From the NCBI GenBank assembly GCA_965277715.1, contig OZ255836.1, positions 2,464,001-2,528,000 on the forward strand: 64,000 nt of DNA, written 5' to 3'. The position numbers were made by a program, and so were the translations under genes. Under the pieces are notes generated by a model that was not told the origin of the DNA, did not search any database, and saw only the letters and a program-made list of their open reading frames with translations. The DNA is from Gammaproteobacteria bacterium (GTDB taxonomy: Bacteria > Pseudomonadota > Gammaproteobacteria > JBCCGL01). The first letter of the stretch is position 1, and each line of letters starts with the position of its first letter. This document shows positions 6,159-55,689 of the stretch, one piece after another.

Positions 6159-7175
6159 ATGAGACACCCAATAATGATTGATATGCAACCTACCGAACGC
6201 GTTTGCGCACGCGCACTTTTTGGCATCGAAACCCCGCTAATGGTGCCCGCGTTCCGCGAGCGCGACGAGCATGTGCCAGAAATCGACCCCGCCTACTGCT
6301 TTAACCACGATGCCACACTGGCCATTCTGGCGGGTTTCGCCAGTGACCGCCGGGTAATGCTACAGGGCTATCACGGCACCGGTAAATCGACGCATATCGA
6401 GCAGGTGGCGGCGCGCCTTAACTGGCCGTGTGTGCGGGTCAATCTGGATGGGCATATCAGCCGTCTCGACCTGGTGGGGCGCGATGTTATCGCAATCCGC
6501 GACGGTAAGCAGGTCACCGAGTTTCAGGAGGGCATCGTGCCGTGGGCGTTACAGCGGCCCGTCGCGCTGATTTTTGATGAGTTCGATGCGGGTCGCCCGG
6601 ACGTGATGTTTGTTATCCAGCGCATTCTGGAGCGCGACGGTAAATTCACCCTGCTCGATCAAAACCGGGTTATCAGCCCACACGCCGGGTTTCGCCTGTT
6701 CGCCACCGCCAATACGGTCGGTCTCGGCAACCTCAGCGGTTTGTACCACGGTGCACAAGTGCTCAATCAGGCGCAAATCGACCGCTGGAATATTGTTGCG
6801 ACACTCAACTATCCGGCACGCGCCGATGAGGTCGACATCGTCGCCTCACGCGTGCCCAATTTCGGCACACACGGAGGCCATGAGGTGATCGGGCGCATGG
6901 TGGCGGTGGCCGATTTAACCCGGCAGGGGTTTGCCGCCGGTGATATATCCACAGTAATGTCACCGCGCACGGTGATTACCTGGGCAGAAAATATGGAAAT
7001 TTTTGGCGAGATGGATCGCGCCTTTCGCCTATCGTTTCTCAATAAGTGCGACGAGGCCGAGCGCTCGATTATCGCCGAATACTACCAGCGGGCCTTCGGC
7101 GAGGAGTTGGAATACTCGATCGCCAATGAAACGCCCAATGCAACACCCAGCCATCAACAGGCAAGCGCCGCGTGA
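6159..7175 (+). CDS. CobS-like (cobaltochelatase small subunit family) MoxR-type AAA+ ATPase
   Basis: GYHGTGKSTHIEQVAARLNWPC, IFDEFDAGRPDV, MSPRTVITWAEN. Confidence 0.85.
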   Translation: MRHPIMIDMQPTERVCARALFGIETPLMVPAFRERDEHVPEIDPAYCFNHDATLAILAGFASDRRVMLQGYHGTGKSTHIEQVAARLNWPCVRVNLDGHISRLDLVGRDVIAIRDGKQVTEFQEGIVPWALQRPVALIFDEFDAGRPDVMFVIQRILERDGKFTLLDQNRVISPHAGFRLFATANTVGLGNLSGLYHGAQVLNQAQIDRWNIVATLNYPARADEVDIVASRVPNFGTHGGHEVIGRMVAVADLTRQGFAAGDISTVMSPRTVITWAENMEIFGEMDRAFRLSFLNKCDEAERSIIAEYYQRAFGEELEYSIANETPNATPSHQQASAA

Positions 7176-9790: not shown

Positions 9791-10852
9791 ATGCCATTGA
9801 TCCAAAACAGCGATTTACCCAGCTTCCAGCGCCTGCGCGATAGCGGAGTCGAAATCCTCGAACCGATGCGCGCCGAGCAACAGGATATCCGCGAGCTGCA
9901 TATCGGCCTGCTAAACCTAATGCCAGATGCCGCCCTGGAAGCCACCGAGCGGCAATTCTTTCGGTTGGTGGGTTCCTGCAACCGCATTGCACAATTCCAT
10001 ATTCACCCCTTCACTGTTTCAGGTGTGGTGCGCGGCGAAAAGGCACAGGCGCATATCGACGCCTACTACCAAGACTTCACCGAAGTGCGCCGGGAAGGGC
10101 TGGATGCGTTGATTATTTCAGGGGCCAACCCGGCTAATGCAGACATCACCCGTGAAGGTTTCTGGGATCAATTGCTGGACGTGATCGACTGGGCCGGCCG
10201 CGATGTGTGCTCTACTTTTTACTCCTGCCTGGCCACACACGTCGCCCTCCAGCACTACCACAACCGCCCGCGTGTGCGCTTACCCCAAAAGCGCTGGGGC
10301 GTTTACTCGCACCGCGTCTGCGATGCCCGCCACCCGCTGGTCACCACAATCAACACACGATTCGATGCGCCCCACTCACACGTTTACGACAGTAGCTGCC
10401 AACAGGCGCGTGATGCCGGCTGGCACGTACTGGCTGAAGGGGAGGTCTCCGGTCTGTATCTGGCGGTGAGTGCCGACCGGTTTCGCCATGTGTATTGTCA
10501 GGGCCATCCAGAATATGACATCAATAGCCTGCTAAAAGAATACAAGCGCGAAATCAACCGCTATACCGGGGGGAGTCGTGACAAACCGCCGCTACCGGAA
10601 AACTATTTCCCACCCGCAGCACGTGAACAACTCGACTGTTTCTTACAGAACCTGGACACCGCGCTGGACAGGGGCACAGCAGCGCCCGCCTTTCCCGAAG
10701 CAGCGTTGTTGCCACTGCTGGATAACACCTGGAGCGACACTGGCCGGGCAATATTCAATAACTGGCTGGGGCTGGTTTACCAAATAACCCACCGCGACCG
10801 CCGAATCCCCTTTATGGCCGGTATTGATCACAACAACCCGCTCGGCCTATAA
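9791..10852 (+). CDS. metA: Homoserine O-acyltransferase, MetA family (probably succinyltransferase)
   Basis: QDIRELHIGLLNLMP, TERQF, catalytic Cys in YSCLATH, PHSH, QGHPEYD, FNNWL. Confidence 0.92.
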   Translation: MPLIQNSDLPSFQRLRDSGVEILEPMRAEQQDIRELHIGLLNLMPDAALEATERQFFRLVGSCNRIAQFHIHPFTVSGVVRGEKAQAHIDAYYQDFTEVRREGLDALIISGANPANADITREGFWDQLLDVIDWAGRDVCSTFYSCLATHVALQHYHNRPRVRLPQKRWGVYSHRVCDARHPLVTTINTRFDAPHSHVYDSSCQQARDAGWHVLAEGEVSGLYLAVSADRFRHVYCQGHPEYDINSLLKEYKREINRYTGGSRDKPPLPENYFPPAAREQLDCFLQNLDTALDRGTAAPAFPEAALLPLLDNTWSDTGRAIFNNWLGLVYQITHRDRRIPFMAGIDHNNPLGL

Positions 10853-10961
10853 CACTGTTTTCCCTCTATGGCTGAACTTTTAGTCGACAGCCTTATCTAC
10901 CCGTATCGGTAGCCTATGTTACGCAGTTGTAAACGCTTAATAGAATGAACACCCGATATTT

Positions 10962-11444
10962 ATGAAGACCCGGCGCTTCCCCCTTTACCTTGCGACCCTA
11001 TGTACTTTGCTGTTGTGCATAAACAATCTGGTGGTGGCCAATACAACCCGCGATTTTGGTCTGTATGTCGTTCACTGCAATGTGATTCCCGCCAGTGCTC
11101 TCGATAGTGACGTGGCGACACAATTTAATATCGCCCGATCAGCACAGCGCGGCGTACTGACACTCGCCATTATGGAAAAAGCCCGTACCGACGCCGACGG
11201 CAATACCTTGGATCACTCGCTGGGCCGTTCGGTACAAGGGCAGATAACCGCACACTGGAGTGGTTTAAACGGCAAAATGGGGACGATTCCCGTTCGTGAG
11301 GTTCGCGAGCAAAGTGCCATTTACTATATTGGTGAATTCGACCTGCCCAGCACCGCGATAATGACATTTGACATTCTGGTTAGCGTCGACGCAAACCGCC
11401 CGCCCTACCGTTTCAGTTTCAACCGGAAATTTAACCCGGACTAA
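10962..11444 (+). CDS. DUF4426-like exported protein
   Basis: Signal peptide; YVVHCN..L..VA..FNI.RS, REVREQSAIYYIGEF. Confidence 0.75.
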   Translation: MKTRRFPLYLATLCTLLLCINNLVVANTTRDFGLYVVHCNVIPASALDSDVATQFNIARSAQRGVLTLAIMEKARTDADGNTLDHSLGRSVQGQITAHWSGLNGKMGTIPVREVREQSAIYYIGEFDLPSTAIMTFDILVSVDANRPPYRFSFNRKFNPD

Positions 11445-11488
11445 ACCCCATTTATTTACCTGTGTGCAAGTAAATACATGGGGCTTAG
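11441..11488. repeat. 48-bp palindromic mini-element, copy 1 (may also act as a terminator)
   Basis: CTAAACCCCATTTATTTACCTG-TGTG-CAAGTAAATACATGGGGCTTAG; second copy at 36846-36893. Confidence 0.7.
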
Positions 11489-11657
11489 CTCATTGAATCA
11501 TAACGGAAATAGACAAAAACACTAAGTAATCCACACCGTGTGTCACTGAAACGCACAAACCTTCTACACTTGTGTTATCTTCCGCCCGCGCCGGGATTCT
11601 ATCGGATTTAGACATGCCTGGTGCAAATCATCAATAACCGAAAACCTGGAGTATTTA

Positions 11658-12002
11658 ATGGCTGCAAAGAAACCGGCCCCAAAAGCCGCTGCTGATGTCA
11701 AAAAACCGCCGACAAAATCGGAAATCCTCAACCATATTGCCAGTGAAGCGGAGTTAAGCCGTAAAGAAGTATCAGCGGTGCTCGATTCACTCAGCGGGCT
11801 GATAGCGAAAAACCTCAAACCACGTGCTGCCGGTTATTTCACCATGCCCGGCCTGTTGAAAATCAAAGTGGTCAAGAAACCTGCCACCAAAGCGCGCAAA
11901 GGTATCAACCCCTTCAACGGCGAGGAAACCGTATTCAAAGCCAAGCCAGCACACAAAGTGGTAAAAGTGTTACCGCTCAAAGGGCTAAAAGACATGGTGT
12001 GA
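11658..12002 (+). CDS. HU/IHF-family histone-like DNA-binding protein
   Basis: Lys/Ala/Pro-rich N-tail, TKSEILNHIA, ARKGINPFNGE, KPAHKVVKV. Confidence 0.9.
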   Translation: MAAKKPAPKAAADVKKPPTKSEILNHIASEAELSRKEVSAVLDSLSGLIAKNLKPRAAGYFTMPGLLKIKVVKKPATKARKGINPFNGEETVFKAKPAHKVVKVLPLKGLKDMV

Positions 12003-40511: not shown

Positions 40512-43500
40512 CTATCTGTCTCCCCACAACGCCAACAACTCATCCAGCCTCGTGGCAAACTGCTCACCACTGGCCTGCGCCTGTTGATTGATATGCTGAC
40601 TTAGCAACGCCTTATGCGTCTGTAATTCGGCAATTTTGCTTTCGATGCTGTCTTCAACAATCAATTTATACACAAACACCGGTTTATCCTGGCCAATGCG
40701 GTGTGCCCGGTCGGTCGCTTGTTGTTCGGCGGCACTGTTCCACCAGGGGTCGTAGTGAATAACAGTATCTGCTCTGGTCAGGTTCAGGCCAACGCCCCCC
40801 GCTTTCAGGCTAATTAAAAAAACCGGAACCTTACCCTGCTGAAATTGATCGACCAGCAGGTGCCGTTTGCGGGTTTTTCCCGTGAGCATTTGGTAGTCGA
40901 TATCAAGCGCCTCCAGGTCTTCGGCAAGCAAACTGAGCATCTGCGTAAACTGGGAAAAAACCAAAATGGCCCGGCCTTCATCGACCAGCTCCCGGAGCAT
41001 GTCGATGCAGTGTTGGCGTTTTGCCGAAGGGGTGCTTGTATCCCCCATCAATCGCGGATCACAGCAGACCTGGCGCAGTTTCAATAACTGTGTGAGGATG
41101 ATTATCTGCTGTTGCCCGCTATTCTCGCTTGTGTCGATTTGTGCCTGGATGGTTTGCCAACCGTCGGTTTTAAGCTGCTCATAGAGCGCCCGCTGTTGCC
41201 ATTCCATACTGACCGCCTGGGGAATAACGGTTTTAGGCGGCAGATCCTGCGCCACTTCGTCTTTGTTGCGGCGCAACATAAACGGGGCGATACGTTGCAG
41301 TAACTGATCGAGCCGGGTGCTGTCAGCGACCTGCTCGATCGGGCCTTTAAACCAGGTGTTGAAATGCACCGCGCTGCCCAGACAACCGGGCATAAGAAAA
41401 TCCATTAGTGACCACAGCTCTCCCAGATGATTTTCCACCGGTGTGCCGGACAGGCACAGACGGTGATCGCTGTGCAGTTGTTTGACCGATTGGCTGTTGC
41501 GGGTGCGTGGGTTTTTGATGCCCTGTGCCTCGTCCAGTACCACCCAGCTAAGCGGTTGCGCCTGCCAGTGAGCCAGGTCGTTGCTGATAAGCGTGTAGCT
41601 GGTGATAACAACGGCGTATTGGCCAATACCCTGCCAGTGTTGATGGCGCTGCGTGCCGTGCATCAGCAGGCACGATAGTTGCGGGGTAAAGCGGCGCAGC
41701 TCGTTCACCCAATTGTGTAACAGGCTGGTGGGGGCGACAATCAGCGCCGGTTTTTCCAGTAGCCCCTGTTGGTATTCGAGGCTTAGGTGCGCCAGGGTTT
41801 GCAGGGTTTTCCCCAGGCCCATATCGTCGGCCAGCAGGCCGTTGATATTTTGCTGTCGCAGGTGTTGCAACCAGCAAACACCCAGCCATTGGTAGGGGCG
41901 CAGGGTGGCGTTAACACCGATGGGCTTTTCTGCAATGAGTTGTGGTTGTCGGTGGATAGCGGCCGCCTGATGGCGCAGTGTTTGCTCCCCACTCCACTGC
42001 GTATCCTGTGGGAGACAGTCATCGATATGTTGCAGGCGGTTCAATTGGCTGAGTGGGAACAGATAACCATCGACGCCGCGCTGGCGGCGGCCACCCTCCG
42101 GCATCAAGTCTTTTAGTTCCTGCATAATGCCGTTGATTTTTTCAGCGGGCAGCAACAACCGTTTGCCGTTTTCGAGCTTTATATGCGGCAGGTCACGCGC
42201 ATAAAACTGTTTGTCGACGGTATTCAGGTGATGCAATAAATCTTTCAGCGAAATCGTTTCACCATCGGCCACAATTTGTATCGATAACTGCCAGTGCTGG
42301 TCATCGGTGTGGGTTACGCTAGCCTGCCATTTCTCGGCATAAATGTAATGGTGATAAAACCCCGCTGCGATGGAAAAGACAAAACCGCTGGTGGTTAAAT
42401 CGTGGTCGGTTTCCGTCAGTAGGGCTTCCCAGTGTTGTGGATTGTCAGATAACCATGTCGATACCCGCCGGGGGCTGCCAGTAGTTGCTTGCTCATGCAG
42501 ATTGTCAGGCGGGGCAGGCTGAAAGCCGAGGCGGTAAATCTGTGCACCCAGTTGATCGGCATAGTGGTGTTCGGCTGTGAGTTGTCTGGGGATCTTATAT
42601 AGCGTTTCGCCGTCCCAGTAACCGCAGTCTGTGCGCGGATCATCGGCAGCCAGGCAGGTGCAATAATGGGGCGTGGTGTAGCGAAACCACAACACAAGCT
42701 GATCTGATTTTGTACGGCCCCGCCGCTTAACCGTGGTGCAATGTGCAACAGGGGTGACCGTTGCCTGTATGGTTTTATGCAGCAGTTCTCCAGGCAGGGG
42801 CAAGCCAAGTGCCTGCCATGCAGTTTGGTGTGCCGATAAAAAAGCCGTGGTATCCGCTGGGGTGATAACGGTATTGGTAGCTTCAATTTCTGCCATCGCA
42901 CAGTCATCAGGCAGGCCGTGGCAACACCCTATCACCCCATCAGATGCGGCATAAAATACCTTGTCCTCTATCGCGAAGAGCCTGTGCCGCTGGGGTATTT
43001 CCCACGTCAGTGTCTGCTCGCCGAGGCTGTTTTTTAGCCAGGCCAGTTGTAGGGTTTGGGGCGCACCCTGGGTAGCGGGTATATAAGCATGGATGGCTGA
43101 CAGGCTGCTGCCGATACGGGTATCGACAAAGCAACGCCGTGTATCGATTAATGCCTGAATAAATGGCACAGTGTCGTCGACGGGTACATTTACCGGAGAT
43201 TGTCGGAGAGTATCGTTACTGCTTGTTTTAGGGCTTATTTCTGCGTGAGTCGTGGCGGGATTGGCGTCTATCAGTTGTTTTAAAATATTTATGTCATCGG
43301 TGTGGATAAAAGGGGGCGGCAGTTGCAGGTGTTGCGGCTGGATACGATACGGTGTGGGTGCACTGACAAGCCGTTGGTTATGCAGCTCGACCAGCGCGAG
43401 TGTCAAGTGAGCATGACAATTGACCAGGGTGCGGGGATGCGGCTGCAGCGATTGAGAAAGGCCTAGAAAGTACGCCAGTGTCAACCCCGGTGCCGCGTTG

Positions 43501-43553
43501 TTGTGTTGTGCCGCTTCGTTTTGTTGTTGTCGAAGCTGGGCTAAAAAACTCAC
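40512..43553 (-). CDS. SNF2/RAD54-family helicase-like ATPase
   Basis: LRPYQ, LADDMGLGKT, VLDEAQ, LSGTPVEN, FSQFT, SLKAGGVGLNLT, QATDRAHRIGQ; GTG start overlaps cobS stop (TAGTG). Confidence 0.9.
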   Translation of the reverse strand: MSFLAQLRQQQNEAAQHNNAAPGLTLAYFLGLSQSLQPHPRTLVNCHAHLTLALVELHNQRLVSAPTPYRIQPQHLQLPPPFIHTDDINILKQLIDANPATTHAEISPKTSSNDTLRQSPVNVPVDDTVPFIQALIDTRRCFVDTRIGSSLSAIHAYIPATQGAPQTLQLAWLKNSLGEQTLTWEIPQRHRLFAIEDKVFYAASDGVIGCCHGLPDDCAMAEIEATNTVITPADTTAFLSAHQTAWQALGLPLPGELLHKTIQATVTPVAHCTTVKRRGRTKSDQLVLWFRYTTPHYCTCLAADDPRTDCGYWDGETLYKIPRQLTAEHHYADQLGAQIYRLGFQPAPPDNLHEQATTGSPRRVSTWLSDNPQHWEALLTETDHDLTTSGFVFSIAAGFYHHYIYAEKWQASVTHTDDQHWQLSIQIVADGETISLKDLLHHLNTVDKQFYARDLPHIKLENGKRLLLPAEKINGIMQELKDLMPEGGRRQRGVDGYLFPLSQLNRLQHIDDCLPQDTQWSGEQTLRHQAAAIHRQPQLIAEKPIGVNATLRPYQWLGVCWLQHLRQQNINGLLADDMGLGKTLQTLAHLSLEYQQGLLEKPALIVAPTSLLHNWVNELRRFTPQLSCLLMHGTQRHQHWQGIGQYAVVITSYTLISNDLAHWQAQPLSWVVLDEAQGIKNPRTRNSQSVKQLHSDHRLCLSGTPVENHLGELWSLMDFLMPGCLGSAVHFNTWFKGPIEQVADSTRLDQLLQRIAPFMLRRNKDEVAQDLPPKTVIPQAVSMEWQQRALYEQLKTDGWQTIQAQIDTSENSGQQQIIILTQLLKLRQVCCDPRLMGDTSTPSAKRQHCIDMLRELVDEGRAILVFSQFTQMLSLLAEDLEALDIDYQMLTGKTRKRHLLVDQFQQGKVPVFLISLKAGGVGLNLTRADTVIHYDPWWNSAAEQQATDRAHRIGQDKPVFVYKLIVEDSIESKIAELQTHKALLSQHINQQAQASGEQFATRLDELLALWGDR

Positions 43554-44266
43554 TAAACCAGCACCCCAAACAACACGCACACCTCCACCAGCTCAATGGT
43601 GGCGCCCATTGTATCCCCGGTCATACCGCCAATCTGTTGCAGCATCAGCCAGCGCAACGCACTGACGGCCAGCACCGCGATCAGCACCGCCCAAACACCG
43701 GCAAGCAGGGCACACAATAATGCACTGATAGCGATTACCGCCCAGATATAGCGACGATCAGACGCATCGACATAGCACTGCCCCAGGCCGTTTTCGCGAA
43801 TGTAGGGGGTTGTTTGGTAGAGTGCCAGCACGGCGCCACGCGCCAATACTGGTGCAACCAGTAGCAGGGCTAATTCACCACTTTCGAGCAATACCGATAA
43901 GGCGGCAAATTTGCACAGCAGTAACAACACTAGCATCACCACCGCAAATGGCCCGCAGAGTGGGTCTTTCATTACCTTCAGCGCACGCTGTTTATCGCCC
44001 CGCCCCGCCGCCCAGGCATCAGCGCTATCGGCCAGGCCATCGAGGTGTAAGCCGCCGGTGATTATCACCCAGGCCAGCAGCACCAGCGCGGCGGCCAGCA
44101 GTGGTGCCGCTATTGGCAGGGCGCCTACACAGAGTAATAACAGACCAATAACCGCCCCCACTAGGGGAAAATACAGTAGCGAGCGCGCAACGGTTGGCGC
44201 GTCAAATGTACGCTGAATAGGGAAGATACTGAGAAATTGCAGCGCGGCAAAAAAGGGGGTGTGCAT
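43553..44266 (-). CDS. cobS: Adenosylcobinamide-GDP ribazoletransferase (cobalamin synthase)
   Basis: ALQFLS, FPLVG, TGGLHLDGLADSAD, MKDP, GGMTGDTMGA. Confidence 0.95.
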   Translation of the reverse strand: MHTPFFAALQFLSIFPIQRTFDAPTVARSLLYFPLVGAVIGLLLLCVGALPIAAPLLAAALVLLAWVIITGGLHLDGLADSADAWAAGRGDKQRALKVMKDPLCGPFAVVMLVLLLLCKFAALSVLLESGELALLLVAPVLARGAVLALYQTTPYIRENGLGQCYVDASDRRYIWAVIAISALLCALLAGVWAVLIAVLAVSALRWLMLQQIGGMTGDTMGATIELVEVCVLFGVLV

Positions 44267-45265: not shown

Positions 45266-46317
45266 TAATTCAGTTTCTCTGAAACAGCGGCCTCGGCAAA
45301 GGTGGCCATCCCCGCGTGGAGCTTGCAGGCGAGTTGTAGCAATGGCACAGCAATGCCCGCGCCACTGCCTTCACCCAGTCGCAACCCCAAGTCCAGCAAC
45401 GGCCGGGCGTTTAATGCCTGCATTATCGCCGCGTGGCCCGGCTCTGCGGAGGCGTGGGCGTAGTGCAGCCAGTCGCCCACACTGGCCTGGTGTCGATGTG
45501 CCACCAGAGCAGCGGCGCTGGCGATAAAACCATCGACCAGAGCGGGGATGCCCTGTTGTGCACAGTGTAAATAGGCTCCCACAAGTGCGGCGATTTCAAA
45601 GCCGCCCATCAGGCGTAAAACCTCCAGCGGTGGATGGTCGCTGCCGTGAAGCGCCAGCGCAGACTGGATGCATTGGGCTTTGGCATTCACCCCCTGCGCA
45701 TCCAGCCCGGTACCAGGGCCGACGAGTGCGCTGGCGGGCATCGACAGCAAGGCACAGGCGATGGCCGTGGCGGCGCTGGTATTGGCGATGCCCATATCGC
45801 CGCCGATGAACAGTTCAACGCCATTGTCCTGGGCGCGCTGTACCGCCTGCCGACCGGCGTCAAGCGCGCTGCGTAGCTGTGTTTCATCCATCGCCGCCCG
45901 CCGGGAAAAATTGGCGGTGCCCGCCGCGATAGGGGTATCGATAACATTGGCCAACGGTGCCTCCGCCGTGGCCACTGTGCCGAGGTTCACCACCTCAAGG
46001 CGCGCTCCCAGCACCTCTGCCAGGACGCAAATAGCTGCCCCGCCCTGATTAAAGTTTTTCACCATCTCCAGGGTTACCACCTGCGGAAACGCCGAGACGC
46101 CCTCGCTGGCGATGCCGTGATCGGCGGCGAATACGGTGATTTGTACTGCCTCAATCCAGGGTTGTTCCTGGCCTTGCTGGGCGGCCAGTTGCACCGCCAG
46201 TTGCTCCAGGCGGCCAAGTGCCCCCGGTGGCTTGGTTAACTGCCCCTGGCGTTGCAGGGCCGCATCGCGGGCCTGTATATCCAGCGACTGGCAAGGGTCG
46301 TCTATCCAGTTATGCAT
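45265..46317 (-). CDS. cobT: Nicotinate-nucleotide:dimethylbenzimidazole phosphoribosyltransferase
   Basis: [48 protein letters not shown]. Confidence 0.96.
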
Positions 46318-46841
46318 GTGTGCTTCCCGGTTTTTTTTAACGCATAGGGCAATCCGGCGATCACTAGGGTTACCCGTTCACAGCAGTGGGCGATGGATTG
46401 GTTTAATTCACCTAACTGATCGGCGTAACGCCGCGCCAGCGCGTTGGCGGGCATCACGCCCAGGCCGATTTCACTACTGACAAACACAATACCACCGCTG
46501 AGTGTAGGCAGTTGATTTAACAGTTTATCAATCTCGCTTTGGGCGCCGATGGTGGTTTCATCCAGTAACAGGTTGCTCAACCACAAAGTGAGGCAGTCGA
46601 CCAACAGGCAATGCCCAGGGGCATCGTTTTCACGTATGGCGTTGGCCAATGCCAGCGGTGCCTCGACCAGCCGCCAGTGATCCGGGCGGCGCGCGCGGTG
46701 CCTGGCAATGCGCGTGTGCATTTCCTCATCCAGTGGCTGGGCGGTGGCGATATAGGTAACGGCGCAGTGCGTTGCGCTGGCCGCCGCTTCGGCCAGGCGG
46801 CTTTTGCCGGAACGCACACCACCGAGAAAAAGTTGTCGCAT
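46302..46841 (-). CDS. cobU: Bifunctional adenosylcobinamide kinase/guanylyltransferase (CobU/CobP)
   Basis: [41 protein letters not shown]. Confidence 0.95.
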
Positions 46842-46987
46842 ACAGATCAAGTAGTTGAAAATAGCTGCGCATTATAATGCCAGGTGCCTATCGGATTCAG
46901 GATAATGATGACTTCTGCATTGCCGGGCAGGCTGCACTCAAGTAAGCTCTTGCGGTTTTTGTTACGCCTGTTTTTATAGGAAACGAC

Positions 46988-48100
46988 ATGCAACTGAATA
47001 AAATCCCCGCAACGGTCGTCACTGGTTTTCTCGGTAGTGGAAAAACCACGCTGCTGTCCAATCTGCTGAAAAATGCTGGCGGTAAACGCATCGCCGTGAT
47101 CGTCAATGAATTTGGCGAGCTGGATGTCGACGCCGAGCTGTTGCGCAACTGCCCTATCGAAGGGTGCGAAGACGATAGCGCCAATGCACCCGACGACGAT
47201 CCAAAAAATGGCTCGACGAGCGGCCCCAAAAGCGGTATCTACGAACTGGCTAACGGCTGTATTTGCTGCACAGTGCAAGAGGAGTTTCACCCAGTGCTGC
47301 GACAATTAATCGAGCGCCGCGACGAGATCGACCATATCCTTATCGAAACCTCCGGTCTGGCCCTGCCCAAGCCGCTGGTGCAAGCCTTTAACTGGCCGGA
47401 TATCAAAACCCATTGCACCGTCGATGCCGTGGTAACCGTGGTCGATGCCCCCGCGATTGCCGATGGCCGCTACGCCAACGACCCGGACGCGGTAGAGCGT
47501 CAGCGCCTGGCCGATCAGGGACTGGACCACGACCCCAGCCTGCGCGAGCTGTTCGACGACCAGCTCAGTGCCGCCGATTTGGTCGTACTCAACAAAATCG
47601 ATTTAATCGACGCTTCGGCACAGGCGGCAGTCACCGGACGCATCAACCAGCAATTGCCGCGTGCGGTCAAAGTCATCAGCGCTACGCACGGGCAACTGGG
47701 CAGCGAGCAATTACTGGGCATTGCCGCCGCCGCTGAAGAGCAGATAGAAGCGCTGCACACCCACCACGACCACCACCATCACCACGGTGAAGAACACCAC
47801 CACGCGCACGATAACTTCGACTCGATGGTGATTCCGCTCGGTGAAGTCGACAGTGACAAATTGGTCGAGGTGATCGATGCCCTGGTGCGCGAGCATGAAA
47901 TCTACCGGATAAAAGGCTTTATAGCGATTCCCGGCAAACCCATGCGCCAGGTTATTCAAAGCGTGGGCACCCGCACCGAGCGCTACTTTGACCGCCGCTG
48001 GGGTGATGATGAAGCGCGGCAGACGCAGCTAGTGGTTATCGGTCAGCGGCTGTCACGTGAGGTGCTGGAAAACGCACTAAGCACAGCAAAAGCCGCCTAA
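46988..48100 (+). CDS. cobW: CobW (COG0523) metallochaperone GTPase
   Basis: GFLGSGKTT, NEFGE, GCICC, ETSGLALPKPLVQAFNWP, His-rich tract. Confidence 0.92.
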   Translation: MQLNKIPATVVTGFLGSGKTTLLSNLLKNAGGKRIAVIVNEFGELDVDAELLRNCPIEGCEDDSANAPDDDPKNGSTSGPKSGIYELANGCICCTVQEEFHPVLRQLIERRDEIDHILIETSGLALPKPLVQAFNWPDIKTHCTVDAVVTVVDAPAIADGRYANDPDAVERQRLADQGLDHDPSLRELFDDQLSAADLVVLNKIDLIDASAQAAVTGRINQQLPRAVKVISATHGQLGSEQLLGIAAAAEEQIEALHTHHDHHHHHGEEHHHAHDNFDSMVIPLGEVDSDKLVEVIDALVREHEIYRIKGFIAIPGKPMRQVIQSVGTRTERYFDRRWGDDEARQTQLVVIGQRLSREVLENALSTAKAA

Positions 48101-48112
48101 CCACGCCTACCG

Positions 48113-49198
48113 ATGCGCACGCACACCTATCCCTTCAGTGCCATTGTTGGCCATCGGCGCCTCAAGCTGGCGCTGATGCTGTGCACCATCGACCCCAAGG
48201 TGGGCGGGGTGTTGCTCAGTGGTGCACGCGGCACGGCAAAATCGACCATCGCCCGCGCCCTGCTAGACCTGATGCCCAGCGTCGATGATACCCGCAATCA
48301 CTTCGTTACCCTGCCACTGGGCGCCAGCGAGGAACGCATTACCGGCACCCTCGACCTTGAAAAAGTGCTGGCCGATGGCGGCGTTGCGTTTGCACCGGGC
48401 CTGCTGCACAAGGCACACCAGGGCATTTTATACGTCGATGAAGTCAACCTGCTCGCCGACCACCTGGTCGACTTACTGCTCGACGTGGCGGCATCGGGGG
48501 TCAATACCGTTGAGCGCGACGGCATCTCACACCAACACCTGGCAGAATTTGTGCTGATCGGCACCATGAACCCGGAAGAGGGTGAGCTGCGCCCCCAACT
48601 GCTCGACCGCTATGGTTTGTGTGTCGATGTCAATGATGACTACAGCGTACCGGAACGCACTCAAATCGTCCGCGCCCGGTTGGCGTATGACGCGGCACCA
48701 ACCGCATTTATTGACAACTTCAGCGCACAACAAGCGCAACTGATCGCCCGTTGTGAGGCGGCGCGGGCGCGGCTGCCCAATGTGGTGCTAAACGATCAAC
48801 TGATCGATGAAATTGCCACACGTTGCCAGCGTGAAGGAGTAGAGGGCGTGCGCGCCGATATTGTCATCCACCGCGCCGCCTGTGCCCACGCCGCCCTGAA
48901 TGGGCGCAATGCAGTCAATTGTGACGACATTGATGCCGTAGCAGAATTTGCACTGCTGCACCGTCGTCGCCCACCGACAGAGCGGCAAACACCTCCCCCC
49001 CAACGCTCACAGCAAAAGAGCGAACAGGGAAATGATCCGCAGCAAAACCAAAGTAGTGCTGAACCCACTTCAGGCTCTGGTGATACAGAGAGCGACTGGG
49101 GTCCACTGCCAGCGATTCCCATGCCTACCGGCGAGCGTCGCCGTCTCGATATCCATAGCCGACAAACACCCACTCCGGGTAAAAAAAAACGGTACTGA
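48113..49198 (+). CDS. ChlI/BchI-like chelatase AAA+ ATPase (0-frame product of a frameshifted chlD-type gene)
   Basis: YPFSAIVG, GARGTAKS, LYVDEVN, MNPEEGELRPQLLDRYG; Pro/Gln-rich tail ends at A9 run. Confidence 0.9.
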   Translation: MRTHTYPFSAIVGHRRLKLALMLCTIDPKVGGVLLSGARGTAKSTIARALLDLMPSVDDTRNHFVTLPLGASEERITGTLDLEKVLADGGVAFAPGLLHKAHQGILYVDEVNLLADHLVDLLLDVAASGVNTVERDGISHQHLAEFVLIGTMNPEEGELRPQLLDRYGLCVDVNDDYSVPERTQIVRARLAYDAAPTAFIDNFSAQQAQLIARCEAARARLPNVVLNDQLIDEIATRCQREGVEGVRADIVIHRAACAHAALNGRNAVNCDDIDAVAEFALLHRRRPPTERQTPPPQRSQQKSEQGNDPQQNQSSAEPTSGSGDTESDWGPLPAIPMPTGERRRLDIHSRQTPTPGKKKRY

Positions 49199-49225
49199 AT
49201 AACACCGGCCCACGGCGCCGGGTGG
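49181..49225 (+). other. Putative programmed -1 frameshift/slippage site (A9) with downstream stem-loop
   Basis: GGT AAA AAA AAA CGG TAC TGA; -1 frame opens after TAA at 49180-49182; CACCGGC...GCCGGGTG hairpin. Confidence 0.75.
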
Positions 49226-49899
49226 CACATCGCCAGTACGTAACACAACCCAGGGGAAGCGGCAGGCCACGCAGTGTCGACGGTCTAGCCAATGGCACCG
49301 TCAATTGGTTTGCCACTCTGACCGACTCGCAAAACCTGCCCTATGGCGACAACGCTAAGCATACGCTGTCTCGTCTGCACTACCGTCTGCGGGAACAGGC
49401 AAACGCCTCGACCTGGCTAATCCTGCTGGACACCTCAGGCTCGCTGCTGGTGCGCAGCGCATTGGCCAGCGCCAAAGGTGTTATAGCGGGTTTGTGTTAT
49501 CAGGCCTACCAACAGCGACAAGCCCTTGAGCTGATCGGCTTTGGCGGTGACGGTATTGCCACCCTTCAGGCGGCGCGCAAACCACCGCGTGACAGCCTGC
49601 CACTGCTCGACAGCATCGGTGCGGGTGGCGGCACACCCTTGCGTGCCGCCTTGTTGCACCTTGCCACGCGCTGCCGACAACTGGCCCGGCAGCACCCAAC
49701 GCAAAACCGCCAGGTGTTTATCTTCACCGACGCACGCAGCCGCGACGTGCTGCACGGGATTGTGCTCAATGCTGAAATCAATATTATCGATACGGAGCAG
49801 GCGGTGGTGCCATTGGGTAGGGCGCGTGCGTTAGCAACGCTGTTGGGCGGTAGTTATCGGCATATTGATTGTTTAGAGACAGTGCCTGTCCCCCGCTAA
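49183..49899 (+). CDS. VWA domain completing a ChlD-like chelatase subunit (-1 frame)
   Basis: INW/VNW-type motif VNWFATL, MIDAS LLDTSGS, GGGTPL, FTDAR; no obvious RBS before GTG 49222. Confidence 0.8.
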   Translation, partial: KKTVLNNTGPRRRVAHRQYVTQPRGSGRPRSVDGLANGTVNWFATLTDSQNLPYGDNAKHTLSRLHYRLREQANASTWLILLDTSGSLLVRSALASAKGVIAGLCYQAYQQRQALELIGFGGDGIATLQAARKPPRDSLPLLDSIGAGGGTPLRAALLHLATRCRQLARQHPTQNRQVFIFTDARSRDVLHGIVLNAEINIIDTEQAVVPLGRARALATLLGGSYRHIDCLETVPVPR

Positions 49900-50238
49900 T
49901 CAATAAACTAGTATAGCAACCACTTCAATGGGAAGTAGACGGGCGTTAATTGCTGATAACATCAGACTGTGTCTCCAACTAAACTCGGTGAGTTAAGCCG
50001 AAAAAACGCAATCGGTCGCAAAAAAGCAGCGTAAAGCATTGGTGTGCATAGGAAAATTTAAAAGTGCGTGGTGACCTACAGAAAATAGGAAATACCGAAG
50101 GTGTAGGAGGGCTGTTTCGATCCTCTTATAGATGATGAGGGATTTTTAAATCTACCCAGGTGCACCAAGAGTTTGCGTAAGCTTTCGGCATATTTTATTT
50201 TTGTTAGGCAACTGTTTGCGTTTTATAGGTTAGAATAA

Positions 50239-50289
50239 AGAGTTATTCAGAAAGCTGGCGAGATTTTAGGCATCTCAAGGATTCGTTGA
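50239..50289 (+). pseudogene. Possible C-terminal remnant of the cognate restriction endonuclease
   Basis: Reads RVIQKAGEILGISRIR-stop, ending 3 nt before the methyltransferase start; resembles, from memory, tails of endonucleases paired with such methylases. Confidence 0.4.
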
Positions 50290-50292
50290 AAA

Positions 50293-51843
50293 GTGACTAA
50301 AAAATTAATTAATAAATGGCAATTCGGTGATTTTCAGACACCTATTGATCTTGCCAGAAAAGTTGTTGAGGTTTTAAAACGAAACCATAGCATTAACCCT
50401 GATATTGTTATTGAGCCTACTTGTGGAAAGGGTGCTTTTGTTCGTGCCTCATGTGAAGGGTTCGAGGGCTCCAATATTCTTGGATTTGAAGTAAACTCTG
50501 AATATGTTATTGAAGCCGGTTTATCCTTAAAGGATATTTCTACAACAAATCGCGTAATAGTAAGTGAGGCCAATTTTTTTAATACTAATTGGGCTAAAAT
50601 TCTATCTGATTTGCAAGGAAATATCCTTGTCATTGGTAATCCGCCTTGGGTAACAAGTAGCGAATTGGGTCTTATCAATAGTAAAAATATTCCCAAAAAA
50701 TCTAACTTCCAAAATAGAAAAGGCATTGAGGCCATTACAGGATCTAGTAATTTTGATATTTCTGAATGGATGCTGTTGCAGCATATTGAGTGGTTATCAA
50801 AACGTGAGGGCACAATAGCACTCCTATGTAAGTATGCGGTTGCGCGTAAAGTTATGAGGCAAGCTAGACAGAGCGCAGAGAACCGTTTCTTTGGGCATAT
50901 CTACCCAATTGATGCAAAACTATATTTTGATGCTGCGGTAGAGGCGTGCCTTTTTGTTTTAACAACAGATACTGGAAGTACTGATTGTGAAGTTTATGAG
51001 TCATTGGACTCATTTGAGTCTTCCCATATTATTGGTGAGAGGGACGGACATATTGTAAGCAATGTTAATAATTATGAAAAATGGAGGAAACTGAAAGGGC
51101 AAGACCCACGATTTATCTGGCGTTCTGGAATAAAACATGACTGCTCAAAGGTTATGGAATTGGAGCCATTCAATAGCGATTATAAAAATGGACTTGGTGA
51201 AACAATAAGGTGCGAAGATAAATACATTTACCCTCTATTGAAAAGTTCTGATATTGGTAATGGAAGAACAAAAACATACAGAAAGGTTGTCATAATAACC
51301 CAAAAATATGTTGGTGAAGATACTTTTTTAATAAAAAAAAATGCACCAAATACTTGGAAATACCTGGTTGACCATAGAGAGTATCTAGATAAAAGAAGAA
51401 GTTCCATTTACAAAAATAAACCAGATTTTTCTATATTTGGTGTTGGTGATTACTCTTTTAAAGAATGGAAAATTGCAATATCGGGCCTATATAAAAAACT
51501 GAAGTTTAGTCTTGTTGGGCCATTAAATGGAAAAACTGTTGCATTCGACGATACTGTAAATTTTTTGTCATTTGATACCGAAGAAGAAGCTAAATTCATA
51601 TACCATTTGGTCACATCAGTTCCAGCTCTTGAGTTTCTCGAATCAATGACATTTTGGGATGAGAAGCGCTCCATTACGACACAAATTCTTAGAAGACTAT
51701 CTATAAAAGAAATAGCGATAGAGCTTGGTGTGTTTGACCAATACCAATCTTGGTCTGAAGATCAATATCCCGCCCATACAGGTCAGATGGAACTTGGTAT
51801 TGCCCAGGAAAAACCCAGTTACAGTAAAGTTGCCAGCAACTAA
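50293..51843 (+). CDS. Gamma-class N6-adenine DNA methyltransferase (type II R-M like), apparently orphan
   Basis: GDFQTP, motif I EPTCGKG, motif IV GNPPW, C-terminal target-recognition region; AT-rich. Confidence 0.88.
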   Translation: MTKKLINKWQFGDFQTPIDLARKVVEVLKRNHSINPDIVIEPTCGKGAFVRASCEGFEGSNILGFEVNSEYVIEAGLSLKDISTTNRVIVSEANFFNTNWAKILSDLQGNILVIGNPPWVTSSELGLINSKNIPKKSNFQNRKGIEAITGSSNFDISEWMLLQHIEWLSKREGTIALLCKYAVARKVMRQARQSAENRFFGHIYPIDAKLYFDAAVEACLFVLTTDTGSTDCEVYESLDSFESSHIIGERDGHIVSNVNNYEKWRKLKGQDPRFIWRSGIKHDCSKVMELEPFNSDYKNGLGETIRCEDKYIYPLLKSSDIGNGRTKTYRKVVIITQKYVGEDTFLIKKNAPNTWKYLVDHREYLDKRRSSIYKNKPDFSIFGVGDYSFKEWKIAISGLYKKLKFSLVGPLNGKTVAFDDTVNFLSFDTEEEAKFIYHLVTSVPALEFLESMTFWDEKRSITTQILRRLSIKEIAIELGVFDQYQSWSEDQYPAHTGQMELGIAQEKPSYSKVASN

Positions 51844-51873
51844 CAAGGTGCTGCGATAAAGAAAATTCAATTT

Positions 51874-52473
51874 TTGAAATTGAAAACAGCATTTTTAACA
51901 CTGTTAATGTTGATGCTGTTTTCTTACGGTGGCAAGCAATTTGCCACAACATACGACAATACTACTGAGTGTAGGGTTGGTTACCCTGAACAAACCACAT
52001 CTCAATATATTTTACCTTATATGCCTAATTCAAAGTTTCTTGTTGGGCAGGGAAACTGTACAGACGGCTCTCATGGAGCCAATACAGACCAGGCGTATGC
52101 CTATGATTTTGATATGCCTATAGGTACGCATGTTATTGCCTCTAGAGCTGGAATAGTTACAGTAGTAGTTGATAACTATGCTGAGAACAATAATATCCCC
52201 GGCCAAGAGAACTATCTTGTTATTCAACATAATGATGGCTCAATTGCTGGTTATTACCACCTTACAAAAGGTGGTGTAGGTGTGGAGGTAGGTGACATAG
52301 TGTCTCAGGGACAAATTGTTGGTCAAAGTGGTAATACGGGTGATAGCTCAGAACCGCACTTACATTTTGAAATTGCACGCTGTGAAGAATGTGAAACCCT
52401 TCCTGTAAGCTTCAAAAATACACGAGAACACAAAGATGGCCTTATAGAAGGTGAGGCATACCAGGCAGAGTAA
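51874..52473 (+). CDS. Secreted M23-family metallopeptidase
   Basis: Signal peptide; H...AYDFDMPIGT, YYHL, GNTGDSSEPHLHFE. Confidence 0.88.
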   Translation: MKLKTAFLTLLMLMLFSYGGKQFATTYDNTTECRVGYPEQTTSQYILPYMPNSKFLVGQGNCTDGSHGANTDQAYAYDFDMPIGTHVIASRAGIVTVVVDNYAENNNIPGQENYLVIQHNDGSIAGYYHLTKGGVGVEVGDIVSQGQIVGQSGNTGDSSEPHLHFEIARCEECETLPVSFKNTREHKDGLIEGEAYQAE

Positions 52474-52689
52474 CGTTTAAGTACAATCAGTTAGCTGAAA
52501 GCTATCCGCCTAGAGATGGGGTTAAGCTTTAAAGCCAAACGAATTAGCAAGTGAAGGAAAATACCCGCCAGCGAATCAGCGCCGCAACCTTGAACAAAAG
52601 CGCCTGAAAACACCACACCTGTTGATCCTGGGTGAACGCCCTGCCTACTATACAGTGACTCCCTGACACTCCACTACCACGGATAAACG

Positions 52690-54240
52690 ATGACACAAAC
52701 CACCAAACGCCGTGGCGCAGCAAGACAGGCACGCCACGCCAAACACCGCGATACCCGACCGCCCAGTGCCATTTCGGCGGGGATGCCAGGCGGGGTGTTG
52801 CAGCCACTGACACAAGCTGAAATCGAGCGCATTCACCAGGCCAGCCTCGATGTGCTGGAAACGGTTGGCATGGGCGAGTGCGTGCCAGAGATGGTTGCGC
52901 TGGCCCAGGCGCGAGGGTGTTGGCTCAACCGCGAGGGCCGTTTGTGTTTTCCGCGTGGTTTTGTCGAGGAGATTATCGATGGCGCGGCAAAAGACATTAC
53001 CCTGCACGCACGCGGTGACGCCAATGACCTGAACCTGTCCTCGACGCGGGTGCACTACGGCACGGGCGGCGCGGCAGTCAAAATCCTCGATTTATACCAA
53101 CAACATTACCGCCCGGCACAGCTTGAAGACCTATACGACTTTGCGCGCCTGGCCGATGCGCTGGACAATATCCACTGGTTTACCCGCTGCGTAATCGCCA
53201 CCGAATACGAGGATATGCTGGCGCTCGATTTGAATACGGCCTACGCCATCGCGGCGGGTACGCACAAACACATCGGCACGGCCATTTCACTGGCTGAAAA
53301 CGTCGCCCCGGTGGTCGAGTTGTTCGATATGGTGGCCGGTGGTCCCGGTAAATTCCGCGAGCGCCCGTTTTGCAAAGTGCACAGCAGCCCGGTGGTCTCA
53401 CCGCTACGCTTTGGTGCAGACGGCGCCGAGGTATGCATCGCCGCGACCCGCGCCGGTATTCCTATCAATGGTATTACCGCGCCGCAGGCGGGCGCCACAG
53501 CCCCGGCGGCGATGGCGGGTACATTGGTACAAGCCAATGCCGAGTCACTGGCGATGCTGATTTTGGTGAATCTGGTGGTGCCGGGCCACCCGACGATTTT
53601 TAGTAGCTGGCCGTTTGTCTCTGACTTGCGCACCGGGGCATTTAGCGGCGGCGGTGGGGAGGAGGCGATTTTGAGCGCGGCGGCGGCGCAAGTCTCTAAC
53701 TTTTACGGTTTGCCTAGCGGGGTGGCAGCGGGCATGAGTGACTCAAAAATTCCCGATGTGCAGGCCGGGTTTGAAAAAGGCATTAGCACGGTTTTGGCGG
53801 GCTTGTCCGGTGCCAATATGGTCTACGAATCGGCGGGGATGCTGGGGAGCCTGCTCGGCGCCTCTTTCGAGAGCTTTGTGATTGACGATGAATCCCTGGG
53901 TATTGCGCTGCGCGCTGTGCGCGGTATCGAAGTCAACGATGAAACCCTGTCGCTCGATGTGATTAAACAGGCGGTCTACGGCCCCGGCCACTATCTGGGG
54001 GCGGAGCAGACCATTCAACTGATGACCAGTGAATACCTCTACCCCAAACTGAGTGACCGCTCAACCCCGGATGACTGGCAAGACAACGGCCAACCACAGA
54101 TGCGTGAGCGGGCCAATGCCCGCGCCAGGGAAATACTCGCCAGTCACTACCCGGAGACAATCAGCGCAGCAACCGACCAAAAAATCCGTGCACGGTTTTC
54201 CATCGACTTACCCCGTAGTAGAACACGTGCAAAGGCGTGA
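52690..54240 (+). CDS. Trimethylamine methyltransferase (MttB) superfamily protein, non-pyrrolysine
   Basis: IHQASLDVLETVG, VSPLRF, GATAPAAMAG, DLRTGAF, SDSKIPDVQAGFEK, GPGHYLG; no in-frame TAG. Confidence 0.9.
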   Translation: MTQTTKRRGAARQARHAKHRDTRPPSAISAGMPGGVLQPLTQAEIERIHQASLDVLETVGMGECVPEMVALAQARGCWLNREGRLCFPRGFVEEIIDGAAKDITLHARGDANDLNLSSTRVHYGTGGAAVKILDLYQQHYRPAQLEDLYDFARLADALDNIHWFTRCVIATEYEDMLALDLNTAYAIAAGTHKHIGTAISLAENVAPVVELFDMVAGGPGKFRERPFCKVHSSPVVSPLRFGADGAEVCIAATRAGIPINGITAPQAGATAPAAMAGTLVQANAESLAMLILVNLVVPGHPTIFSSWPFVSDLRTGAFSGGGGEEAILSAAAAQVSNFYGLPSGVAAGMSDSKIPDVQAGFEKGISTVLAGLSGANMVYESAGMLGSLLGASFESFVIDDESLGIALRAVRGIEVNDETLSLDVIKQAVYGPGHYLGAEQTIQLMTSEYLYPKLSDRSTPDDWQDNGQPQMRERANARAREILASHYPETISAATDQKIRARFSIDLPRSRTRAKA

Positions 54241-54357
54241 CAAAACACAACGCACTAATTGTGGTTTTCCCCCACCGCCATAAGTACTATCACCGTACTA
54301 CCAGCCGTACCACCAAAAGCAATCGATTTAAGACACCTTCTCAAACAGGCCCGTGTT

Positions 54358-55689
54358 ATGAGTACTCACCCACATTCGGTTTCCAACCCTAAAATCAACC
54401 CCACCAAAGGGGTCAAACCCGATGGTTCGCCAAACGACAATGACCGGGTAGAAACCGGCCCCACCGATCTGGCTTTTGACGAATGGGCCAAGCTTGGCCT
54501 GACTGCACCAAACCTGGAGCGTATGCGCAGCACCCGCCTCAAACGCCTGTGCGCCGAACTGCAAAAGCGCGACTACGCCGGTGCGCTGTTGTTTGATCCG
54601 CTGAACATCCGCTATGCCACGGACAGCTCCAATATGCAACTCTGGACGACGCACAACCCATCCCGTGCGGCGTTTATTTCAGCCGCTGGCCATGTCGTGT
54701 TATGGGATTTTCACGGCTGTGAACACCTGAGCAATTACCTGCCGCTGATCAACGAAGTGCGCCACGGCGCCGCAGGCTTTTTCTATTTTGCCGTGGGTGA
54801 TCAGGAGGCGCAGAAAGCCGCCGAGTTTGCCAAGCAAGTCGATGATTTGATGGCGCAGCACGGCGGGCGCAACCGCCGCCTGGCGGTAGATAAAATCGAG
54901 GTGGCCGGCGTGCACGCCCTGGAGCGGCTCGGCATTGAAATTGGCAGTGGCCAGGAAGTGTGTGAACATGCGCGTTTAATCAAGGGTGTCGATGAAATCA
55001 ACGCCATGAAGTGCGCCGTTGCCACCTGTGAAATTGCCATGCAGGCGATGGAGGACACACTGCAACCGGGCATGAGTGAAAATGAACTGTGGGCTGTATT
55101 GCACGCCGAGAACATCAAACGCGGTGGCGAGTGGATTGAAACGCGCATACTAAACTCTGGCCCGCGCAGTAACCCGTGGATGCAGGAGTGTGGCCCACGC
55201 AAGATCCAGGCAGGCGATATCCTGGCCTACGACACCGACCTGATTGGCCCCTATGGCATGTGCTCAGACTTATCGCGCACCTGGGTATGCGGTGACGGCA
55301 AAGCCAGCGATGAGCAGCGCAAGCTGTACCAGGTGGCCTATGAGCACATTCAAACCAACCGCGAACTGTTGAAGCCCGGCAACAGCTTTGATGACCTGAC
55401 ATTTAAAGGCCACCAACTGCCAGAGGAGTACCTTGAATTACGCTACGGTGTGCGTTTTCACGGCGTGGGCTTGTGTGATGAGTTTCCGGCTATCTTCTAC
55501 CCGCAGGACTATATCGACGGCGCCTTCGACTACGCGCTGGAACCCGGCATGATGCTGTGCGTGGAGGCTTATATTGGTGCGGTGGGGGGCCGCGAGGGCA
55601 TCAAGCTCGAAGACCAGGTACTGATTACCGAAACGGGGTATGAAAACCTGTCTCACTACCGATTTGATGAACGTTTGTTGGCATGTTGA
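54358..55689 (+). CDS. dddP: DMSP lyase DddP (M24 peptidase fold)
   Basis: Diagnostic N-terminus PNDNDRVETGPTDLAFDEW; LFDPLNIRYATDSSNMQLW, GGEWIETR, DTDLIG, HGVGLCDE, KLEDQVLIT. Confidence 0.88.
   Translation: MSTHPHSVSNPKINPTKGVKPDGSPNDNDRVETGPTDLAFDEWAKLGLTAPNLERMRSTRLKRLCAELQKRDYAGALLFDPLNIRYATDSSNMQLWTTHNPSRAAFISAAGHVVLWDFHGCEHLSNYLPLINEVRHGAAGFFYFAVGDQEAQKAAEFAKQVDDLMAQHGGRNRRLAVDKIEVAGVHALERLGIEIGSGQEVCEHARLIKGVDEINAMKCAVATCEIAMQAMEDTLQPGMSENELWAVLHAENIKRGGEWIETRILNSGPRSNPWMQECGPRKIQAGDILAYDTDLIGPYGMCSDLSRTWVCGDGKASDEQRKLYQVAYEHIQTNRELLKPGNSFDDLTFKGHQLPEEYLELRYGVRFHGVGLCDEFPAIFYPQDYIDGAFDYALEPGMMLCVEAYIGAVGGREGIKLEDQVLITETGYENLSHYRFDERLLAC

Follow-up and report, generated by a model that had tools for sequence, protein, structure and literature searches.

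A probable frameshifted chlD gene with a slippery run of nine adenines beside cobW in a gammaproteobacterial genome

When two adjoining open reading frames (ORFs) on one strand encode the two halves of what is, in other organisms, a single polypeptide, it has to be asked whether they represent two genes, one damaged gene, or one gene whose decoding changes frame part-way along. The question is raised by a locus in a stretch of 64,000 nucleotides (here called the window) from contig OZ255836.1 of a gammaproteobacterial genome (assembly GCA_965277715.1, positions 2,464,001 to 2,528,000), where an ORF for a ChlI-like AAA+ ATPase, lying just behind cobW, gives way in the -1 frame to a VWA domain. 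The explanation favoured here, in which we have considerable confidence, is that the locus is a frameshifted chlD gene (fs-chlD), a member of the class I ATP-dependent chelatase family, which shares a transcript with cobW and yields ChlI-like and ChlD-like products by means of slippage on a run of nine adenines (A9). The site is a conserved and real recoding site within a recoding family that has already been published, and in that sense it is an ordinary case.

The zero-frame ORF (ORF1, 48113-49198 on the plus strand) encodes 361 residues and ends GGT AAA AAA AAA CGG TAC TGA, with GGT at 49178-49180, the three AAA codons at 49181-49189 and TGA at 49196-49198. The -1 frame has a TAA at 49180-49182 and is then open from 49183 as far as a TAA at 49897-49899; since stops lie close by on both sides, the switch into the VWA frame is confined to 49183-49198, a segment in which the A9 run is the sole slippery element and which includes, inside that run, the heptamer A_AAA_AAA in the correct phase (49183-49189). 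Both non-productive frames terminate within five codons of the run. The original prediction had described the run, the upstream TAA, the open -1 frame to 49899 and the short stretch available for the switch, and on direct reading of the sequence all of these prove correct. A run of adenines is not in itself remarkable: runs of eight (A8) occur seven times in the window where 3.86 would be expected, a count equalled or exceeded by 19 of 100 shuffles, so that there is no A8 enrichment in the window beyond chance and the run by itself is no evidence. What does go beyond chance is the placement of the run at a domain junction and its conservation among relatives.

This conservation was followed in both proteins and genomes. 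In a protein search with ORF1 the best 120 of 8000 scored candidates were taken, leaving 119 homologue clusters once the window's own protein was excluded; 105 of them are short (331-366 residues) and 14 long (552-606 residues), a VWA domain being found in 13 of the long ones, i.e. all except P0010. Every one of the 105 short clusters ends in KK (77 clusters) or KKK (28) with no more than four residues after it, and the 11 closest clusters listed (P0003-P0009 and P0011-P0014, 60-68% identity) have, exactly as in the window, KKK, two further residues and a stop. A scan of genomes matched at least 605 stretches, 601 of which were confirmed as relatives, and the best 80 loci, all of them at no more than 59% identity, were kept and classed by tblastn. 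Among these 80 there are 43 in-frame fusions and 29 split loci with the VWA part in the -1 frame; the other eight comprise one with an in-frame stop (L047) and seven that are unclassified, having no VWA match or running off the contig (L050, L057, L058, L066, L072, L073 and L078). A slippery run starting 10 nt before the frame-0 stop is present in 28 of the 29 split loci, L074 being the only one without, and takes the form AAAAAAG in 19 (the Pseudomonas type, CCA AAA AAG CCC TAG) and A7 in nine (the Burkholderiales type, GCA AAA AAA CGC TGA). The comparison of orthologous loci for a conserved A run with a frame break, which had been proposed as a check when the locus was first noticed, therefore has a positive outcome.

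A tree of the first 300 residues was made with FastTree from 127 rows, which comprise 53 protein clusters and 73 loci besides the window and leave out the short clusters P0046-P0121, P0010 and the seven unclassified loci; its supports are local Shimodaira-Hasegawa-like (SH-like) values only, and several of its branches are long. The window is placed among 12 rows that form a clade with a local support of 99, every one of them split and with KKK. Around this clade is a looser group of 21 rows, all split except P0021, and the sister group consists of 17 in-frame marine gammaproteobacterial forms. Over the tree as a whole the change between split and fused states is needed at least seven times. 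The existence of in-frame relatives had been put forward in the original prediction as grounds for refuting it; such relatives do exist, as the 43 fusions attest, but they belong to other clades and do not refute the reading, and they show rather that the functional long form is the fusion protein.

Two individual cases may be mentioned at this point. P0021, an in-frame protein of 563 residues with ...PSPKKKSLK... at the junction, is sister to the split P0027 (...PNPKKKI), the two differing as if by a single base of the A run, which could reflect a natural variant, captured slippage or an assembly error. L047, a chlD from a metagenome-assembled genome (MAG) of an uncultured actinomycetotal organism (Actinomycetota), has an in-frame TAG at 10997, the VWA part resuming 300 nt later without a change of frame, and is nested in an otherwise in-frame mycobacterial clade; here the TAG could mark a pseudogene, an error or stop read-through.

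As regards the encoded products, ORF1 has the Pfam domains Mg_chelatase, AAA_5 and AAA_lid_2, its Walker A motif reads GARGTAKS, and its Walker A and B motifs, like the metal-ion-dependent adhesion site (MIDAS) of the -1 part, are intact, so that both halves look functional. The slipped product, anticipated by the original prediction as an AAA-linker-VWA protein of some 595 residues with a MIDAS, indeed comes to 595 residues in the order AAA+-linker-VWA with the MIDAS sequence DTSGS, its first 359 residues being common to the short and long products. Against NCBIfam TIGR02442 (641 positions) ORF1 covers positions 1-354 and the -1 ORF positions 454-641, while the read-through product P0122 (translated with AAAA as K, and hence one Lys shorter than the true slipped product) matches in one stretch over positions 1-641 with 470.9 bits. 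In alignment the slipped product is colinear throughout with 10 in-frame relatives (552-616 residues), identities being highest in the AAA+ part (53-60%), lower in the VWA part (32-40%) and lowest in the linker (13-26%); all share DWG ahead of the junction and, past it, NWF and DxSxS, and the position of the junction is within a low-complexity linker. The closest solved structures are ChlI/BchI chains only (8osf_A, E 1.9e-79; 6l8d_A; 1g8p_A), covering residues ~62-290. The central claim, that one gene makes a ChlI-like and a ChlD-like subunit by a -1 shift, thus finds support in the ends of the short clusters, in the 28 split loci with a run and in this colinearity.

The course of events proposed is that standard decoding of ORF1 would give the 361-residue ChlI-like AAA+ ATPase, serving as small subunit, and that in a fraction of expression events there would be slippage on the A9 run, either through -1 re-pairing of tRNA-Lys on A_AAA_AAA at the ribosome or through one extra A added by RNA polymerase. 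Decoding would then go on in the -1 frame to 49899, giving the 595-residue AAA+-linker-VWA protein as ChlD-like medium subunit, and the short and long products would be expected to form an I/D-type motor driving a CobN-type cobaltochelatase. That both products are made in this organism, in some ratio and by some route of slippage, and that CobN is their partner, we infer.

Several observations weigh against this reading, and it is as well to set them out together. The length of the A9 run is read in the DNA of the window only, the 11 closest relatives being known as proteins. The read-through product misses the curated cut-off of TIGR02442 (779.45 bits), and also those of TIGR02031 BchD-ChlD (286.0 against 499.55 bits) and TIGR02030 BchI-ChlI (334.2 against 466.95, a cut-off that ORF1 alone, at 336.7 bits, likewise falls short of); in-frame relatives are similarly under the TIGR02442 cut-off (L004, 492.6; L001, 456.8; L017, 733 bits), and the gene, though related to Mg-chelatase subunits, is not their equivalog. 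The predicted fold after the run is no better than that of shuffled sequences (z +1.4, +0.39 and -0.48 in three folds), and in this the window differs from most relatives, which have a strong hairpin 5-6 nt past the heptamer. The GTG at 49222 could start a VWA protein of 225 residues, and a check of its Shine-Dalgarno sequence does not discriminate, the starts of cobW, chlD, mttB and cobS/T being equally weak. Lastly, the window is without cobN but has a cobS/cobT-like pair (absent from the original prediction), so that CobN is no more than a putative partner of the two products.

How much such points count depends on what else might explain the locus. If the break were a homopolymer error of sequencing or assembly, the true gene having A10 (or A7) and being a plain in-frame chlD, one could appeal to the error-prone nature of homopolymers, to the in-frame state of 43 of the 80 loci and of 13 AAA-VWA fusions among the 119 clusters, and to the pairing of P0021 (PKKKS) with the split P0027, which implies that one-base differences in the run exist in databases. 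However, the ending KKK, two residues and a stop is found in 12 of 12 rows of the window's clade, which come from independent assemblies with identities of 60-73%; all 105 short clusters halt right after KK or KKK; 28 of the 29 split loci, which stem from many isolates, keep both run and break; and frameshifting in this family has been demonstrated experimentally by Antonov et al. (PMC3711429). We regard such an error as very improbable. The notion that the gene is a decaying pseudogene, a chlD frameshifted after cobN was lost from the locus and the cobS/cobT-like pair took over, can draw on the lack of cobN between cobW and chlD, where 26 of 29 split relatives have it, on the low-GC island adjoining the 3' end of the gene, and on the presence of the pair itself, but it would have to accommodate a single break placed precisely at the conserved recoding site of the family, two halves otherwise open with their Walker and MIDAS motifs intact, and the same layout across the clade, and it seems to us the least probable of the alternatives.

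A further proposal is that there are two separate genes, the ChlI-like ORF being followed by a VWA-only protein begun at the GTG through coupled re-initiation after the TGA, with no fusion product at all. This GTG sits 24 nt past the frame-0 stop and upstream of the NWF motif, and for some of their clusters Antonov et al. give evidence that downstream initiation occurs as well as frameshifting (PMC3711429). Such an arrangement gives no reason, however, for a slippery heptamer to stand 1-2 codons ahead of the stop in 28 of the 29 split loci and in all 105 short clusters. Two of those 28 loci, L014 and L021, lack any ATG, GTG or TTG in the -1 frame ahead of the conserved region, so that the VWA part cannot arise there by separate initiation. 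The linker, moreover, is one continuous polypeptide in the in-frame relatives. ChlD-type medium subunits require an N-terminal AAA+ module, as is seen for Mg chelatase, and this too counts against separate genes, which we consider unlikely.

Returning to the favoured explanation of one recoded gene, it may be asked what drives the shift. The GC-rich hairpin that the original prediction had noted downstream of the run exists (Table 1), but its stability is no better than that of shuffles and it is badly spaced: the downstream region has a minimum free energy (MFE) of -17.6 kcal/mol and a z of -0.48, 58 of 200 shuffles being at least as stable, and with no signal above shuffles the hairpin was dropped as evidence of a stimulator; it is probably not a dedicated one. 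The 60 nt downstream in the 28 split relatives have a median MFE of -29.85 kcal/mol and a median z of -2.61 (z < -2 in 18 of the 28), and in 17 Pseudomonas loci a stem of 10 pairs is kept, three of the pairs with compensatory changes. Given the length of the run, together with a hairpin no better than shuffled sequence, slippage by RNA polymerase has to be taken as a serious co-mechanism, and we infer that the homopolymer itself drives the shift here, slippage by the polymerase (A9 to A10) making a serious contribution alongside the ribosomal -1 shift. As reported by Antonov et al., cassettes of the Mg-chelatase cluster in E. coli reporters frameshifted more often the longer the run (7 A, 10%; 9 A, 40%; 11 A, 63%; PMC3711429); according to the review of Atkins (2016), A_AAA_AAR is conserved in the chlD recoding gene, and bacterial RNA polymerase shows efficient slippage on 9 A/T, which is exploited by Thermus dnaX (PMC5009743). 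The ribosomal and RNA-polymerase routes yield an identical protein and are indistinguishable by sequence. A later abstract by Antonov (2020, MBE) is said to suggest that mechanisms of frameshifting may be taxon-specific. One other interpretation of the same stretch was tried and rejected: taken on the minus strand, the T9 run with the stem preceding it might be a terminator, but the four terminator-like sites in the window are no more than the 4.6 expected, and there is no minus-strand gene with its end at this place.

Table 1 Coordinates, within the window, of the features of the chlD locus and of related genes.
Feature	Position	Strand	Remarks
cobS-like gene	6159-7175	+	CobS_N and AAA_5; TIGR01650 516 bits, cut-off 558.55
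cobT-like gene	7172-8890	+	CobT and CobT_C VWA; overlaps cobS-like gene; TIGR01651 361 bits, cut-off 759
cobW (cobalt metallochaperone GTPase)	46988-48100	+	Pfam cobW and CobW_C; TIGR02475 473.6 bits, cut-off 332.1
ChlI-like AAA+ small subunit (putative), zero-frame ORF	48113-49198	+	Walker A 48221-48244, Walker B 48425-48442, then Pro/Gln-rich tail
Stops framing the switch	49180-49202	+	TAA 49180-49182 (-1 frame, upstream), TGA 49196-49198 (frame 0), TAA 49200-49202 (third frame)
A9 slippery run	49181-49189	+	Candidate site of -1 ribosomal shift and/or one-A insertion by RNA polymerase
-1 continuation, linker and VWA	49183-49899	+	NWF motif 49303-49311; MIDAS DTSGS 49429-49443; Pfam VWA_2
Weak GC hairpin CACCGGC...GCCGGGTG	49203-49224	+	7 pairs, one bulge; begins 13 nt after the run
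GTG	49222-49224	+	Single ATG/GTG/TTG of the -1 frame within 49183-49440; start needed if VWA part is a separate gene

Frameshifted chlD genes, to which the original prediction had referred as known, are indeed described in Antonov 2013 (PMC3711429), the Atkins 2016 review (PMC5009743) and Kuznetsov 2022 (PMC9227772), the cluster given in the first of these consisting of 23 genes in Pseudomonas, Burkholderia, Delftia, Herpetosiphon, Methanocaldococcus and Methanococcus; a search of the literature for "fs-chlD" or "frameshifted chlD" by that name found nothing beyond the last (PMC9227772). Of the features by which such genes are recognised, the window has the colinear AAA+/Pro-rich linker/VWA-MIDAS architecture, the VWA part in the -1 frame with a short overlap, and the conserved A_AAA_AAR, while a downstream stimulatory RNA structure is lacking in it (z -0.48, 13-nt spacer). 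The Pseudomonas and Burkholderiales genes belong to the same family (AAA+ identity 54-57%) and share with the window the AAA+-linker-VWA split with VWA in -1, an A-rich slippery site 1-2 codons before the frame-0 stop, and cobW nearby; they differ in having A_AAA_AAG or A_AAA_AAA with a strong hairpin, and in lying behind cobW-cobN, whereas in the window the run is A9, the hairpin is not significant and cobN is lacking. The "stage 8" motor of Kuznetsov 2022 calls for a cobN in the genome, as a rule adjacent, and no separate small-subunit gene; the window holds no cobN, and a cobS-like gene is present. The long-A-run cassettes in supplementary file 2 of PMC3711429 likewise have a homopolymeric A run, stops nearby and, in the insert as printed, no GC-rich hairpin, although these are AT-rich and the window is bacterial with ~58% GC; archaeal genera are among those listed for the cluster in the paper's main text.

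A parallel from another protein family is dnaX (PMC5009743), where, as proposed for the window, two products have a common N-terminal AAA+ part (tau and gamma) and slippage may take either of two routes, and where stops likewise lie close by in the non-productive frames, E. coli relying on a ribosomal -1 shift at A_AAA_AAG with a hairpin and Thermus thermophilus on RNA-polymerase slippage at a 9-base run; the slipped product of dnaX is, however, the shorter one, while that of the window is the longer. It is conceivable, if rather doubtful, that the window's clade has swapped the ribosomal signal (A_AAA_AAG or A7, with a hairpin 5-6 nt downstream) for a bare A9 after the Thermus dnaX design, the long subunit being made mainly by RNA-polymerase slippage, and that the gene has also been uncoupled from cobN, so that its I/D products could serve a partner other than, or besides, CobN. 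What is even mildly new is confined to the A9 design without hairpin in the clade, the disappearance of cobN from the cobW-chlD operon, and the presence of the cobS/cobT-like pair in the same genome. The locus is otherwise one further member of a published family, and a tidy example of a long homopolymer seeming to replace a hairpin stimulator. For annotation, the two ORFs should be entered as one recoded gene with two products, and not as an "ATP-binding protein" and a "VWA protein", nor as a pseudogene.

The in-frame relatives of the marine sister clade (Motiliproteus L004, Psychromonas L006, Hahellaceae L022, a Pseudomonadales MAG L001 and Pontibacterium P0071) have the same domains and motifs and a cobalamin neighbourhood, but, unlike in the window, the gene is one uninterrupted ORF and its junction lacks an A run. 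In L001, L004, L006, L022 and L046 chlD (match at ~10000-11800, or 1264-3018 in L022) lies between a cobalt transporter (CbtA or CbiM/Q/O; CbiMNQO) and cobO/cbiA/cbiD/cbiJ/cbiC, with CbiX nearby in L001 and L022. In these five no cobN was found within 10 kb, nor a separate chlI among the ORFs of at least 150 residues in ~6-7 kb on either side (for L046, only from just upstream).

In the window itself the gap between the end of cobW and the start of chlD is 12 nt, so that the two probably form one operon. No cobalamin riboswitch upstream of cobW, or anywhere else in the window, reaches the gathering score. The divergent genes upstream are cobU (46302-46850, minus strand), cobT (the dimethylbenzimidazole (DMB) phosphoribosyltransferase), cobC and cobS (cobalamin synthase). 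As the original prediction had it, there is no cobN in the 64 kb: none was found by tblastn with P. putida CobN (L007; E <= 1e-10), and Pfam scans of 47 ORFs gave no CobN domain. The order cobW-cobN-fs-chlD is found in 26 of 29 split relatives, L002 and L014 being short contigs that start inside cobN. A role as motor of CobN is nevertheless what family and neighbours together best suggest.

CobW is described as the cobalt chaperone for CobNST (bioRxiv 10.64898/2026.10.09.757910; also PMC7895991 and PMC10206600), whose CobS/CobT motor follows the same logic as fs-chlD, an AAA+ ATPase and a VWA adaptor driving CobN with CobW as chaperone (bioRxiv 10.64898/2026.10.09.757910); the CobS/CobT domains CobS_N, CobT and CobT_C are nevertheless absent from the fs-chlD ORFs, and the cobS/cobT-like genes are separate (Table 1). 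These form a second AAA+/VWA pair 40 kb from fs-chlD, with neighbours that are not B12 genes (iPGM, an NDH2-like gene and homoserine O-succinyltransferase). The CobS-like protein has homologues in Gamma- and Betaproteobacteria, Motiliproteus and Pandoraea among them, at 73-91% identity, and the co-occurrence of cobS-like and split chlD genes is probably common, as is suggested by P0125 with P0012 and P0208 with P0015, whose contigs agree in length within each pair (513,535 and 5,812,322 bases respectively). The missing cobN and the presence of this pair touch on the question of what role ChlI/ChlD-type motors have when no large subunit is encoded nearby.

Some minor observations concern the surroundings. 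Inside the 3' end of cobU there is an A8 run (46331-46338, minus strand) some ten codons before the stop, near the cobU/cobT overlap. An ORF of the SNF2 helicase family (40512-43580, minus strand, 1022 residues) overlaps the 3' end of the cobalamin synthase gene cobS by 28 nt; its best NCBIfam matches (SCO1167-type helicase, pilus-regulating Snf2 and ZorD) are all far under their cut-offs. Directly after the chlD stop comes a low-GC island of 2.6 kb (49920-52500; GC 0.33-0.41 against 0.55-0.62 in the flanks), which is probably acquired DNA and has ORFs for an M23 peptidase (51874-52473) and for an N6_Mtase-like protein (50293-51843), the latter including another run of A9 at 51333-51341. Beyond it, the Rfam element PYLIS_3 (the pyrrolysine insertion element of mttB) matches at 53734-53833 on the plus strand with 54.1 bits (gathering score 38), inside an MttB-family ORF (52690-54240) that is open for 516 residues with no in-frame TAG and is on that account a non-pyrrolysine MttB homologue; downstream of this ORF lies a gene for the dimethylsulfoniopropionate (DMSP) lyase DddP (54259-55689).

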